The notes below the pieces were generated by a model. That model made no database searches. It was not told the origin of the DNA and worked only from the letters and a program-made list of their open reading frames with translations. Below, in pieces: positions 53,038-60,491 of a stretch of DNA of 64,000 bases. The stretch lies in assembly GCF_053078305.1 (NCBI RefSeq), contig NZ_CP166879.1. One strand, written 5' to 3'. How positions within the stretch are numbered: the first letter of the stretch is position 1; each line of letters opens with the position of its first letter. Position numbers and translations under genes: made by a program.

Positions 53038-54651
53038 TCAATGCTTCACAATATACATAGTCCGACTGTACGCCACATCTTCAGGGTTATTAATGGGATA
53101 ACCTTTCAGCCACGGTTTGATTAATCGTCCATTGGTATATTGATAAATTGGTGCAATCGGTGCTTGCTCCATGAGGATTTTTTCTGCCGCGTTGTAATCG
53201 GCATTACGCGCTTTAACGGTATTTTCCGTCGATGCCTGGACCAGAACTTTGTCGTATGCCGGATTGTAAAAGCGTGAAATATTTCCTGAATGCGTTGACG
53301 TTAATAATGTCAGGAAAGTGGAGGGTTCATTATAATCCCCCACCCATGAGGCGCGGATAACATCAAAATTGCCGGTGTTACGGCTATCGATATAGGTTTT
53401 CCATTCCTGATTTTGCAATTTAACATCTACGCCAAGGTTCTTTTTCCACATCGATGCTACAGCAATCGCAATTTTTTGATGGTTTTCTGAAGTGTTATAC
53501 AAAAGCGTCAGCTTCAGCGGTTTTTGCGGACCATAACCAGCTGCGCTCAACAAAGTTTTTGCCTGCGCATTCAGTTCTTCCTGACTCATTTGTTCAAACG
53601 GCGAAGGTTCCGGCGTAAATCCGGCGGTAACATCTGGTGTAAAATGCCACGCTGGCTTTTCGCCCGTCCCTAATACTTTTTCGGTCATCAGGCGGCGATC
53701 TATCGTCATACTTAATGCCAGACGAACGCGCTGATCTGCCGTCGGCCCTTTTTGCGTGTTAAACGCATAATAATAGGTCCCGAGCTGCGGCGGCGTATAA
53801 ACCTGCCCCGGAATATCCTTCAACAGCTTCTGATACATATTTTTCGGGAAGGATTCGGTGATATCAATATCCCCCGCGAGGTAACGCTTAGTGGCTGCGG
53901 ATTCCTGATTAATTGGCAGGAAGGTCACTTTTTGCAGTACCGTTTTGGCGTTATCCCAATAATGGGTATTCGGTACCACGACCAGTTTTTCATTGACTAC
54001 GCGCTCTTTAAGAACATAAGCGCCATTGCCGATCAGATTTCCGGGTTTCGTCCACTCTTTACCGCTTTCTACGTTGGCTTTTTGCACCGGGAAGAAGGCA
54101 AAGTTAGCGGTTAAATTCACAAACCACGGCAACGGTTTATCAAGCTGAATTTTCAAAGTATGGGCATCAACTGCGGTGACGCCAAGCTGGTCAGGCGTAG
54201 CTTTACCATCAATAATCGCCTGTGCGTTGTTGATTCCCGCCAGCGCGGCAAACCATGCAAATGGCGATAGCGTTTTCGGGTCCACCAGACGCTGCCAGCT
54301 GTAGACAAAATCTTGCGCCGTTACCGGTGTGCCATCCGCCCATTTTGCGTTATCGCGCAGGGTAAAAGTCCAGATACGGTTGTCATTACTTTTCCACTGA
54401 GTCGCAACGCCGGGGACAATCTCCCCTTTCTCGTTCTGATTCACCAGTCCTTCAAACAGATCGCGAATGACCTGAATCTCTGGCAGGCCCACGGCTTTAG
54501 CGGGATCCAGCGACGCAGGCTCATCTTTAATGTGGCGCACCAGCTCCTGCTTCTCTGCCAGTACTGTGCCGCTCGGAACTTCTGCAGCATACGAAAGAGA
54601 AATGCTGCTGACCAACAGCGCACAACACGTGACTGAAACAGAGTGCTTCAT
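53038..54651 (-). CDS. mppA: Periplasmic murein tripeptide-binding protein (ABC substrate-binding, OppA-like)
   Basis: 537 aa from MKHSVSVTCCALLVSSISLSYA (signal peptide). Confidence 0.9.
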   Translation of the reverse strand: MKHSVSVTCCALLVSSISLSYAAEVPSGTVLAEKQELVRHIKDEPASLDPAKAVGLPEIQVIRDLFEGLVNQNEKGEIVPGVATQWKSNDNRIWTFTLRDNAKWADGTPVTAQDFVYSWQRLVDPKTLSPFAWFAALAGINNAQAIIDGKATPDQLGVTAVDAHTLKIQLDKPLPWFVNLTANFAFFPVQKANVESGKEWTKPGNLIGNGAYVLKERVVNEKLVVVPNTHYWDNAKTVLQKVTFLPINQESAATKRYLAGDIDITESFPKNMYQKLLKDIPGQVYTPPQLGTYYYAFNTQKGPTADQRVRLALSMTIDRRLMTEKVLGTGEKPAWHFTPDVTAGFTPEPSPFEQMSQEELNAQAKTLLSAAGYGPQKPLKLTLLYNTSENHQKIAIAVASMWKKNLGVDVKLQNQEWKTYIDSRNTGNFDVIRASWVGDYNEPSTFLTLLTSTHSGNISRFYNPAYDKVLVQASTENTVKARNADYNAAEKILMEQAPIAPIYQYTNGRLIKPWLKGYPINNPEDVAYSRTMYIVKH

Positions 54652-54987
54652 AAGTTTCCCTCTAACCGACATTAAAATTGATGCGTAATTATTTGTTTCG
54701 CCTTAAAGAAATGCAAACAACTTCCATCAAAAAAGTGACACAGGAAGCATAAAATGTTTTATGTATCAATATATTAAATCAGATTTAGTGTAAATAATAG
54801 ACGCCAAAATGCGGCAAAGCACATAGAACACCGAACACTACGTTCGGGCTTCGCACGTTCAAACCAGTTTTCGGTATCATAATCAGCATCTGTCGCCATT
54901 GTACGAAGAATAAAAAATAACCAAAACGTTGAAAGGAACTGAGAATACGTTAAGAGAAGAATTAAATTAATGTATCAGCAAGTAGTG

Positions 54988-55887
54988 CTAAACAGCACCT
55001 TTATACTTCAGCCTATCTATAAATAATGAGAATGCCGAGCCAGCATGTCGACGGTGTGGATAGTACAGGTGATAACCGGGTAAATCTGGTGTGAATTTAT
55101 CCAAAACACGTATCAGTTTTTTTTCTTTAATAGCCCGCTCAACCTGATCATAAGGTAGATACGCCAATCCATGCCCATCAATTGCAGCATCAATGATCAG
55201 GTCTATCGTATTCAGTAAAAGCTGACCTTCCATGCGAACACGAACTTCACGTCCACCGCGTATTAATCTCCAGCGATTTGCTGTACCCGATGTGGGAAGA
55301 TACAAATTAACTGCCTGATGATCTATTAATTGTGACACTGACGTTGGAACACTTCGGCGGGAAAAATAATCCGGTGAGCCAACAATAGCCATTGGTATAT
55401 CTGGCCCGATTCGAATGGCGATCATATCTTTATCCATCTCCCCACCCAGACGGACGCCTGCATCAAAACGCTCAGAAACGACATCAGTCAAACCATAATC
55501 AATGATAAGCTGAATATCAATTTCAGGGTGTGATTTCAGGAATGTGCGCATGGCTGGTAACAATATCGTTTTTGCTGCATGTTCTACAGTAGTAATACGT
55601 ATTGTCCCGGATGGGCGGTTCTGCAGATCGCTCAGGGATGCCAGGGCAGAATCTATGTCATGCAGCATAGGGCCAAGAACAGACAAAAGATGCTCGCCCG
55701 CTTCAGTAGGTACAACACTGCGCGTGGTTCGCGTCAGAAGCCGCAATCCCAATCGTTCTTCTATACGGCGCACTATCTGGCTTAATGCTGACTGCGCCAT
55801 GCTCAGGCGGGCTGCTGCGCGAGTGAAGCTACGCTCCTCTGCAACGACGACAAACGCCATCAGATCAGCGATCTCTTCACGCTTCAT
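54988..55887 (-). CDS. pgrR: LysR-type regulator PgrR
   Basis: 299 aa; N-terminal HTH; divergent from the downstream hydrolase operon. Confidence 0.85.
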   Translation of the reverse strand: MKREEIADLMAFVVVAEERSFTRAAARLSMAQSALSQIVRRIEERLGLRLLTRTTRSVVPTEAGEHLLSVLGPMLHDIDSALASLSDLQNRPSGTIRITTVEHAAKTILLPAMRTFLKSHPEIDIQLIIDYGLTDVVSERFDAGVRLGGEMDKDMIAIRIGPDIPMAIVGSPDYFSRRSVPTSVSQLIDHQAVNLYLPTSGTANRWRLIRGGREVRVRMEGQLLLNTIDLIIDAAIDGHGLAYLPYDQVERAIKEKKLIRVLDKFTPDLPGYHLYYPHRRHAGSAFSLFIDRLKYKGAV

Positions 55888-58822: not shown

Positions 58823-59551
58823 ATGACCGTAACCCGCCCACGCGCCGAACGCGGCGCATTTCCGCCCGGAACAGAACATTACGGACGTTCATTATTGGGC
58901 GCGCCGTTAATCTGGTTTCCGGCCCCTGCAGCCAGTCGCGAAAGTGGTTTGATTCTGGCTGGCACTCACGGTGATGAAAACTCTTCGGTCGTCACGCTCT
59001 CCTGTGCTCTGCGGACTTTGACACCTTCTTTGCGCCGCCATCATGTGGTGCTGTGTGTGAATCCTGACGGCTGCCAGCTGGGGTTACGGGCCAATGCTAA
59101 TGGTGTGGATTTAAACAGAAACTTTCCGGCGGCAAACTGGAAGGAAGGTGAAACGGTTTATCGCTGGAACAGCGCCGCTGAAGAACGTGATGTCGTATTA
59201 CTGACTGGTGACAAACCTGGCTCCGAACCTGAAACCCAGGCGCTGTGCCAGCTTATACACCGCATTCAACCTGCCTGGGTGGTCTCATTCCACGATCCAC
59301 TGGCCTGTATTGAAGATCCCAGACACAGCGAATTAGGCGAATGGCTGGCTCAGGCGTTTGAATTGCCTCTGGTAACCAGCGTCGGTTATGAAACGCCTGG
59401 CTCTTTCGGCAGTTGGTGTGCAGATCTGAACTTGCATTGCATCACCGCAGAGTTTCCGCCCATCTCCTCCGACGAAGCCAGCGAAAAATATCTCTTTGCG
59501 ATGGCAAACTTGCTGCGCTGGCATCCTAAAGATGCAATTCGCCCGTCGTGA
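58823..59551 (+). CDS. mpaA: Murein peptide amidase A (zinc carboxypeptidase-like)
   Basis: 242 aa from MTVTRPRAERGAFPPG; HGDE zinc motif (AGTHGDENSS). Confidence 0.85.
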   Translation: MTVTRPRAERGAFPPGTEHYGRSLLGAPLIWFPAPAASRESGLILAGTHGDENSSVVTLSCALRTLTPSLRRHHVVLCVNPDGCQLGLRANANGVDLNRNFPAANWKEGETVYRWNSAAEERDVVLLTGDKPGSEPETQALCQLIHRIQPAWVVSFHDPLACIEDPRHSELGEWLAQAFELPLVTSVGYETPGSFGSWCADLNLHCITAEFPPISSDEASEKYLFAMANLLRWHPKDAIRPS

Positions 59552-60491
59552 ACTGAAGCGCCGGTTCCACATCTACCGCCAGCCAGGTCGGTCCGTCAAG
59601 ATCGGCGAAACTGACCTGCGGCACCAGCGGTAAAGCGGCGCTAATGGCACGAGAGGTACACAACATGCAGCCCAGCATCAGACGAAAACCTTGTGCACGT
59701 GCTTCAGTCGCCAGCGCCAGCGCTTCCGTCAGACCCCCGGTTTTATCGAGCTTAATGTTAACCATCTCATAGCGCCCTTTCAGCGCCTTCAGATTGCTAC
59801 GAGTATGACAACTTTCATCAGCACAAATCGGTAACGGATGAATAAAATTCTCCAGTGCCGCATCGTCCTGCGCAGGAAGCGGTTGTTCAAGCATAGCAAC
59901 GCCTAAATCCGCCAATAGCTGGCAACGTGCCGCCAACCCTTCTGCACGCCAGGATTCATTTGCATCAACGATCAGCGTGGCATCGGGCACAGCTGTGCGA
60001 ATTGCCACCATCCGCTCACTGATAAGATGGTTATCCAGCTTCACTTTCAATAATTTCGCGCCGGCCTGCCAGAGTGTTGATGCGCTATTGGCCATCTGAT
60101 CAGGCGTACCGATGACTACCGTCTGTGCAGTGGTGACTGTCTCGGGAAGCGTTATGCCGATCAAATCAGCCAGCGATTGCTGCTGTTTTCGCGCCGCCAG
60201 ATCCCACAATGCACAATCCAGCGCATTACGTGCTGCGCCGGCAGGGAGAATTTTTTGCAACTCCTCCCGTGTCAGCCCTTTCTCTAATTGCGGCACGACG
60301 CTCATAATTTGCGCCATTACCGAGGCATCACTTTCTCCATAACGCGGATACGGCGTGCATTCGCCGGTGCCTTTAATACCCTCTTCTTCCAGTTCAACCA
60401 CCACCACGCGCGCTTCACTGCGACTTCCCCGGGCAATCACAAACGGGGTATGTAAGGGCCAGGCTTCCTCGAATACCTTAACGGTTCTCAT
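59526..60491 (-). CDS. ycjG: L-Ala-D/L-Glu epimerase (enolase superfamily)
   Basis: 321 aa from MRTVKVFEEAWPLHTPF; strong SD AAGGAG; 3' end overlaps the mpaA 3' end by 26 nt. Confidence 0.85.
   Translation of the reverse strand: MRTVKVFEEAWPLHTPFVIARGSRSEARVVVVELEEEGIKGTGECTPYPRYGESDASVMAQIMSVVPQLEKGLTREELQKILPAGAARNALDCALWDLAARKQQQSLADLIGITLPETVTTAQTVVIGTPDQMANSASTLWQAGAKLLKVKLDNHLISERMVAIRTAVPDATLIVDANESWRAEGLAARCQLLADLGVAMLEQPLPAQDDAALENFIHPLPICADESCHTRSNLKALKGRYEMVNIKLDKTGGLTEALALATEARAQGFRLMLGCMLCTSRAISAALPLVPQVSFADLDGPTWLAVDVEPALQFTTGELHL

Follow-up and report, generated by a model that had tools for sequence, protein, structure and literature searches.

Positions 53038-60491 of the stretch analysed here, a 64,000-nucleotide (nt) window from contig NZ_CP166879.1 of RefSeq assembly GCF_053078305.1, hold the known Escherichia coli locus for the salvage and catabolism of murein tripeptide, and the region between two of its genes, mppA and mpaA, appears to have received a foreign gene cassette that is now eroding. 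The conserved unit in the Enterobacteriaceae consists of mppA and mpaA in divergent orientation, ycjG convergent with mpaA, and then tpx and tyrR. Three of its products act on murein tripeptide, L-Ala-gamma-D-Glu-meso-diaminopimelate (Dap): MppA hands it to the Opp permease, MpaA cleaves the gamma-D-Glu-Dap bond, and YcjG epimerises the resulting L-Ala-D-Glu, a functional link that is established in the literature. An earlier interpretation made from the DNA letters alone (the sequence-only reading) had grouped these genes with a LysR-type regulator gene (pgrR), two hydrolase genes and an NmrA-like pseudogene into a single murein-peptide recycling neighbourhood. The core of that grouping is conserved, whereas pgrR, the hydrolase genes and the NmrA-like gene, which encodes a short-chain dehydrogenase/reductase (SDR), make up the inserted cassette; the conserved functional cluster consists of mppA, mpaA and ycjG only. 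We consider the whole explanation, in which a known locus carries an inserted cassette and the overlap between the 3' ends of mpaA and ycjG is a by-product, to be probable. The functions of all the genes, the overlap in the annotation and the overlap in transcription have already been published; the foreign, eroding cassette in the mppA/mpaA promoter region, and a 37-nt repeat that may also mediate its loss, are new.

The cassette spans 54746-58697 (3,952 nt) and comprises a queH fragment, pgrR, the genes for alpha/beta hydrolase 1 (ycjY) and alpha/beta hydrolase 2, and the NmrA-like SDR gene. Our comparison set consisted of 80 Enterobacteriaceae loci (80 species) encoding MpaA, in each of which the stop codons of mpaA and ycjG were located. 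In at least 65 of these 80 related species, no cassette separates mppA from mpaA, and the two stand next to each other in divergent orientation, about 183 nt apart; among the cassette-free species are E. albertii, E. whittamii and another three Escherichia lineages. The borders of the cassette in the window are marked by a 37-nt direct repeat (repeat family D2), whose left copy lies upstream of mppA (54709-54745, plus strand) and whose right copy lies upstream of mpaA (58698-58734, plus strand). The copies are identical at 32 of 37 positions, and they are the only two in the whole window, against 0 expected from shuffles. The left copy appears to duplicate part of the ancestral region between mppA and mpaA, and cassette-free sites carry a single copy (for instance, positions 2995-3045 of locus L003 and 2750-2790 of locus L089). 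When the window is set against these empty sites, the left junction aligns as far as the repeat's last base and the right junction from the repeat's first base onward. Base composition also differs: the GC content of the cassette is 44.8%, with a third-position GC content (GC3) of 0.40-0.46, compared with 54% and a GC3 of 0.53 for mpaA and ycjG. The block thus shows the marks of a genomic islet, namely absence from the same site in sister taxa, flanking direct repeats and deviant composition; neither the open reading frames (ORFs) nor the annotation of 54746-58697 revealed an integrase or transposase. The single-copy empty sites and the aligned junctions argue that this segment is an insertion, apparently into the ancestral divergent promoter region of mppA and mpaA and with duplication of the target. 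In the scenario we propose, a foreign LysR-regulated cassette would have entered the 183-nt mppA/mpaA region in the E. coli lineage, duplicating 37 nt of it.

Homologous cassettes are found in distant bacteria. On a 216,610-bp Rhizobium replicon, a LysR gene stands divergent from genes for hydrolase 1, hydrolase 2 and an NmrA-type SDR, and the group is located between the insertion sequence (IS) IS21 and three tyrosine recombinase genes; identities of the encoded proteins to those of the window are 74% for PgrR, 84% for hydrolase 1, 64% for hydrolase 2 and 66% for the SDR. Similarly, Pluralibacter gergoviae has the LysR gene with both hydrolase genes (79%, 84% and 81% identity, respectively), and in Sphingobium the LysR gene and hydrolase 1 adjoin a transposase gene. 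None of these three cassettes lies near murein genes, and mobility genes flank the homologous cassette only in Rhizobium and Sphingobium. Homologues of YcjY at 81-88% protein identity occur in Rhizobium, Agrobacterium, Sphingobium, Burkholderia and Pluralibacter, an unusually high level for such distant taxa; in all, 5,303 homologues were recovered at E <= 1e-30 (query 56025-56942). As a separate observation, the left edge of the cassette holds a 75-nt remnant of queH, the epoxyqueuosine reductase gene (54816-54890, minus strand), which may be left over from the surroundings of the cassette in the donor; a pseudogene fragment is annotated by the NCBI Prokaryotic Genome Annotation Pipeline (PGAP) at the equivalent position of strain ES5 (locus L001, 3279-3353).

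A census of 5,426 complete E. coli genomes shows the cassette in decay. Whereas pgrR and ycjY are present in 5,242 of the genomes, the 3' part of the SDR gene is found in 2,942, and only 1,282 have hydrolase 2; in 173 the mppA-mpaA site is uninterrupted, with no cassette. At least four states can be distinguished in the species: the full cassette; a form that has lost hydrolase 2 through a deletion of about 880 nt; a form in which both hydrolase 2 and the SDR gene are deleted, as in K-12, where ymjD and ymjC are the remnants; and complete absence. The empty site of strain GF4-3 contains a single repeat that is chimeric between the left copy and the right (CCATC...GTGATACAAGA). This chimera points to repeat-mediated excision and indicates that the GF4-3 site probably arose by secondary loss, through recombination between the 37-nt repeats.

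The origin of the cassette bears on what is known of its regulator. For a LysR gene with a divergent operon, binding to its own spacer and self-repression are standard. PgrR has been reported to bind in the ycjY/pgrR spacer, as determined by systematic evolution of ligands by exponential enrichment (SELEX), and to be negatively autoregulated (PMC5934670; PMC3946193; PMC10505187). Its published link to mpaA, through a ycjY-ymjDC-mpaA operon, is most simply explained as the outcome of an insertion that put mpaA downstream of the hydrolase operon. By this step, mpaA would have been placed downstream of a PgrR-controlled operon, and the regulator of an imported operon would thereby have come to be named a regulator of peptidoglycan recycling. 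A fuller proposal, which we advance tentatively and hold at somewhat less than even chances, is that the recycling role of PgrR is an accident of the insertion, with mpaA exposed to read-through from a foreign operon, and that the 37-nt repeats mediate precise excision, creating an on/off polymorphism in natural E. coli in which ~3% of genomes have the empty site. Because the regulator and the hydrolases belong to an imported, eroding cassette, guilt by association is a weak argument that murein peptides are substrates of YcjY, hydrolase 2 and the SDR, and our analysis ties neither the hydrolases nor the SDR to these compounds. Strains with full, partial and absent cassettes constitute a natural test set for the importance of PgrR control of mpaA.

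The mppA/mpaA intergenic region may have been entered more than once. In Salmonella enterica subsp. arizonae, the gap between mppA and mpaA (locus L023, 1449-3677; locus L025 is similar) contains genes resembling those of cytolethal distending toxin, encoding two CDtoxinA domain proteins and an Exo_endo_phos (CdtB-like) protein. These toxin-like genes suggest that the region is a recurrent insertion site.

At the other end of mpaA, the sequence-only reading had described a 26-nt overlap with the convergent ycjG and had proposed that it could couple the expression of the two genes by transcriptional interference. The overlap itself is borne out at 59526-59551, where the 3' coding ends of the two convergent genes meet and overlap, and it is the same in K-12 MG1655 (ycjG 1388930-1389895, mpaA 1389870-1390598). 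A reassignment of gene starts or stops, which could have removed it, was considered: two in-frame stop codons set the overlap, the TGA of mpaA at 59549-59551 and the TAG of ycjG at 59526-59528, and therefore no change of start codon removes it. We also rejected an annotation artefact as its cause, on the grounds of these in-frame stops and of its recurrence in K-12 and in 21 other species loci of Escherichia, Citrobacter and Salmonella. Convergent overlaps of coding sequences (CDSs) are in any case ordinary, with 75 such pairs counted in the E. coli reference genome (PMC4161906).

Across the comparison set, ycjG converges on mpaA in every one of the 80 loci and overlaps it in 75. In 77 loci tpx comes after ycjG, on the strand of mpaA; the remaining 3 are too short to tell. 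The extent of the overlap varies. The 26-nt form is shared by 22 loci (Escherichia, Salmonella and most Citrobacter), 4 Citrobacter loci have 47 nt, and the most widespread form, 10 nt, occurs in 43 loci from Enterobacter, Lelliottia, Leclercia, Kluyvera, Klebsiella, Kosakonia and others; overlaps of 4 nt (3 loci), 33 nt (1 locus) and 247 nt (2 loci) make up the remainder, and in 5 loci the genes are separated by 88-331 nt. An alignment of the junctions derives the 26-nt state from the widespread 10-nt state, TCAnnnnTGA, by a 1-nt deletion beside the ycjG stop codon that shifted the mpaA frame and added five codons. In the same alignment, the C-terminus of YcjG (..LHL) is conserved and the tail of MpaA is variable; the crystallised chain of E. 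coli MpaA (5HXD) ends at residue 237, the ancestral length. Among the loci with a spacer, L053 has an 88-nt palindrome resembling a repetitive extragenic palindromic (REP) element, whereas L056, L058, L060 and L062 share a spacer of ~300 nt (~4727-5057 in locus coordinates) that holds a strong bidirectional terminator, e.g. AAAAAACCCGCATGGCCGGAGCAATGCGGGTTTTTTT, as well as a small hydrophobic ORF in the orientation of ycjG. Close abutment of mpaA and ycjG thus persists while the length of the overlap drifts and separation is tolerated. The overlap would then be an old consequence of abutment without a spacer, in which the stop codons drifted and mpaA gained five dispensable codons.

Transcription across this junction extends well beyond the shared 26 nt. 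Neither a consensus scan nor a scan for hairpins with a U-tract found an intrinsic terminator at or near the mpaA/ycjG boundary (59500-59650). The candidate folds there, compared with shuffles, gave z = -1.0 and -1.75, neither of which is significant, and the boundary does not have the features of a bidirectional terminator; the best candidate was a hairpin followed by U5 on the minus strand (59530->59484, z = -1.0). As no intrinsic terminator separates the genes, the RNA of each extends into its partner. For K-12, Adams et al. (2021) list a region of Rho termination at 1390286(+), on the strand antisense to mpaA (score 3.9, p = 7e-5); upstream/downstream reads in 800-nt windows (DirectRNA-seq) were 47/14 without bicyclomycin and 58/68 with it (PMC7815308, supplement 2). 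This position lies 391 nt beyond the ycjG stop codon, at ~59135 in the window, and coincides with the most C-rich, G-poor stretch of the ycjG RNA (59205-59045); the stretch, at 59045-59205 on the minus strand and inside the antisense of mpaA, has a C/G ratio of 1.5-1.9 in 80-nt windows. Rho termination of the ycjG RNA about 0.4 kb inside antisense mpaA makes the antisense overlap both real and long. In the opposite direction, the read-through RNA of mpaA contains comparable stretches of C over G at 59672-59790 and 60272-60400, and no Term-seq 3' end antisense to ycjG is listed, the next one on that strand being the tpx terminator (PMC7815308, supplement). The RNA overlap therefore spans hundreds of nt, and the 26-nt CDS overlap is not a functional unit.

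Overlapping transcription of the pair, as envisaged by the sequence-only reading, is already catalogued and published, and the idea is not new. In the ExcludonFinder catalogue for MG1655, ycjG-mpaA is one of 165 convergent excludons that were detected in 50% or more of 58 transcriptomes; tpx-ycjG is one of its 16 divergent excludons, and mpaA-ycjG-tpx belongs to its three noncontiguous operons (PMC12288877). The two genes are convergent and adjacent, as members of a convergent excludon are, and overlapping transcripts from both strands have been published for K-12 only (PMC12288877; PMC7815308).

Several observations weigh against our account of an inserted cassette and an incidental overlap. 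The E. coli cassette carries no mobility gene; to our knowledge, a 37-bp target duplication is typical of no transposase, and it fits no transposition or integration mechanism that we can name. The DNA of the cassette is only 68-71% identical to that of its Rhizobium and Pluralibacter relatives, so that neither is the donor. As for the overlap, its retention in 75 of the 80 species could equally reflect selection for the abutting architecture, and membership of the excludon class in at least half of the 58 transcriptomes fits a regulatory reading just as well (PMC12288877). The rival to insertion holds that the pgrR-hydrolase-SDR block is ancestral at this site, forms part of the murein-peptide pathway and was lost repeatedly elsewhere. 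Such a history would accord with the published standing of PgrR as a peptidoglycan-recycling regulator whose regulon includes ycjY-ymjDC-mpaA and ycjG (PMC5934670), with the filamentation caused by ycjY overexpression, the only phenotype of the hydrolases or SDR found in the literature (PMC3614548), and with the apparent secondary loss behind at least one E. coli empty site. Yet none of the sampled genera outside Escherichia has the block, and it is also missing from E. albertii, E. whittamii and further Escherichia lineages in which the single-copy element has the outgroup sequence. In other bacteria the cassette is found away from any murein genes, its GC and GC3 are below those of the flanking genes, and it is eroding within E. 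coli, all of which makes an ancestral block very improbable beside an insertion.

For the junction itself, we think it most likely that the antisense overlap of mpaA and ycjG is a by-product, tolerated because both genes are expressed at low levels, and not a dedicated switch. A regulatory role is unlikely. The case for one would be that the overlap is a selected convergent excludon, acting through collision of RNA polymerases or cleavage of the RNA duplex by RNase III, which tunes the MpaA:YcjG ratio or makes expression reciprocal; its place among the 165 convergent excludons (PMC12288877), the missing terminator between the genes, the reach of the ycjG RNA ~390 nt into antisense mpaA, the abutting architecture in 75 of the 80 species and the documented termination of convergent polymerases by collision (bioRxiv 10.1101/2022.10.23.513370) can all be cited for it. 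MpaA and YcjG act in consecutive steps, however, and reciprocal expression would have no obvious logic; the length of the overlap is unconstrained, from 4 to 247 nt, and five lineages with inserts of 88-331 nt retain both genes. Moreover, the published DirectRNA-seq reads are low (47 upstream and 14 downstream per 800-nt window), so that collisions should be rare, and where CDSs overlap any co-expression scores automatically as an excludon. We give still less credence to a functional noncontiguous operon of mpaA, antisense ycjG and tpx, in which read-through from mpaA would co-express tpx and repress ycjG, although it is one of three so listed in MG1655 (PMC12288877), the tpx terminator is the next listed Term-seq end after mpaA on that strand (PMC7815308), and the order mpaA(+) ycjG(-) tpx(+) holds in 77 of the 80 loci. 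Against this stand the strong C-over-G stretches of the untranslated read-through RNA (59672-59790 and 60272-60400), where Rho would be expected to enter, the 118-nt upstream region that tpx has of its own, and the lack of a functional link between a thiol peroxidase and a murein amidase; the missing 3' ends may reflect low mpaA expression under the conditions used, and the conserved order is plain synteny. For the by-product that we favour, the contrast between species that have a spacer at this junction and species that do not offers a natural test of whether the 3' overlap matters.

The two sides of the cassette retain what may be the original promoter elements of the mppA/mpaA region. A candidate sigma-70 promoter for mppA was identified by consensus scan at 54688-54717 on the minus strand (-35 TTTGCA, 18-nt spacer, -10 AATAAT). 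Its -35 element falls in AAATGCAAA and its -10 element in ATTATTTGTTTC, as read on the plus strand, and both blocks are invariant across genera in an alignment of 65 intergenic regions. On the other side, the ancestral mpaA-proximal upstream region (58735-58822, plus strand) contains the conserved blocks ATTTGAT and TTTTGCACAACACTGCC in the same alignment. These two blocks, likewise invariant across genera and ~25-60 nt upstream of the mpaA start codon, resemble a family-wide operator or promoter element, putatively one of either kind. By eye, TTTTGCACAACACTGCC does not suit a sigma-54 or FNR site in spacing or half-sites, and no assignment was made.

Just inside the mpaA ORF (20-40 nt), at 58842-58862 on the plus strand, a GC hairpin (GCGCCG-AACG-CGGCGC) is followed by AUUU. 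A K-12 Term-seq 3' end at 1390559(-), 39 nt inside mpaA, coincides with it (Adams et al. 2021; PMC7815308, supplement), and the hairpin could mark premature termination or a stop to an exonuclease. Its fold (-14.8 kcal/mol, z = -0.7) is not significant. We rejected a conserved attenuator at this position: the protein motif RPRAERGAFPPG is conserved, but the arms of the hairpin are not complementary outside Escherichia and Citrobacter. A search of Rfam over 52900-61300 at E <= 1 returned as its sole match a sub-threshold RAGATH-10 inside pgrR (28.5 bits vs 41.2), which was dismissed as chance.

The segment 53038-60491 is E. coli chromosome, with 95-99.6% identity to 5,418 of the 5,426 complete genomes. 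ORFs, family profiles and the annotation of near-identical genomes and of K-12 agree with the gene identities and coordinates given by the sequence-only reading. On the minus strand, mppA occupies 53038-54651; its longest ORF extends to 54672, and the start annotated in near-identical genomes is 54651. The product, a periplasmic murein-tripeptide binding protein of the OppA family, scores 640 bits against that family, under the OppA equivalog cut-off of 947, as expected of a paralogue. Its assignment as MppA, with murein tripeptide as the predicted ligand, follows the PGAP name in genomes of 99.6% identity and synteny with K-12 mppA (b1329). MpaA, the murein tripeptide amidase (gamma-D-Glu-Dap amidase; 58823-59551, plus strand), matches the NCBIfam equivalog NF007897 with 478.9 bits against a cut-off of 157, covering 236 of 237 model positions and leaving a tail of 6 amino acids (aa), and its residues 1-237 are identical to the chain of PDB 5HXD. 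YcjG, the L-Ala-D/L-Glu epimerase (59526-60491, minus strand), matches equivalog NF011708 over 321/321 positions (677.5 bits, cut-off 343) and PDB 1JPD at E = 1.5e-209. The gene for thiol peroxidase, tpx, lies beyond at 60610-61116 on the plus strand, the strand of mpaA, and forms the downstream end of the published "noncontiguous operon."

Within the cassette, pgrR (ycjZ; 54988-55887, minus strand) was recognized by its ORF, its matches to the LysR family and its annotation as PgrR, and it diverges from the hydrolase operon. The latter begins with ycjY (alpha/beta hydrolase 1; 56025-56945, plus strand), supported by ORF, family matches and annotation, and continues with its paralogue, alpha/beta hydrolase 2 (56945-57874, plus strand), which is ~40% identical to hydrolase 1 and corresponds to the ymjD remnant of K-12. 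The SDR gene (57895-58532, plus strand), with matches to the Pfam families NAD_binding_10 and NmrA, is frameshifted. Alignment to the intact 212-aa gene of strain ES5 and to K-12 places the lesion, a 1-nt deletion, in an A-run at ~58274, and the three best E. coli matches listed for the gene span 1 base more than the query, consistent with the presence of the extra base. Since these matches are 1 base longer, the lesion may be confined to this strain or may be a sequencing error in the homopolymer.

Compared with known systems, the locus is closest to the b1325-b1329 region of K-12 (ycjG-mpaA-ymjC-ymjD-ycjY-pgrR-mppA), which has the same order, orientation and 26-nt overlap and also contains the 37-nt repeat; the near-K-12 genomes among the matches listed show 98.4% sequence identity. 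K-12 differs in two deletions (~880 nt and 664 nt), after which ymjD and ymjC are all that remains, whereas the window has a full-length hydrolase 2 gene and most of the frameshifted SDR gene.

The junction of mpaA and ycjG shares with convergent excludons (PMC12288877) the arrangement of convergent neighbours with overlapping transcripts, and ycjG-mpaA is itself in that catalogue. As a regulatory unit, however, an excludon implies reciprocal regulation, whereas ycjG-mpaA was placed there by transcript overlap, and since the CDSs themselves overlap, detection is automatic if both genes are expressed. The junction also recalls the bidirectional terminators of convergent E. coli genes (SEnd-seq; bioRxiv 10.1101/2022.10.23.513370), in that a convergent pair without a spacer obliges polymerases from both sides to meet or to terminate in the partner gene; here, in contrast, the boundary is without a stem-loop or U-tract, and the only mapped termination is Rho-dependent and ~0.4 kb away.

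Finally, the cassette resembles horizontally moved units of a LysR gene with a divergent operon. It has the same layout, a LysR gene facing two hydrolase genes and an SDR gene, and a regulator that binds its own spacer and represses itself. In other members, synteny is kept across Alpha- and Gammaproteobacteria beside IS and recombinase genes, whereas the E. coli copy differs in having no mobility gene and in being bordered by the 37-nt target duplication.

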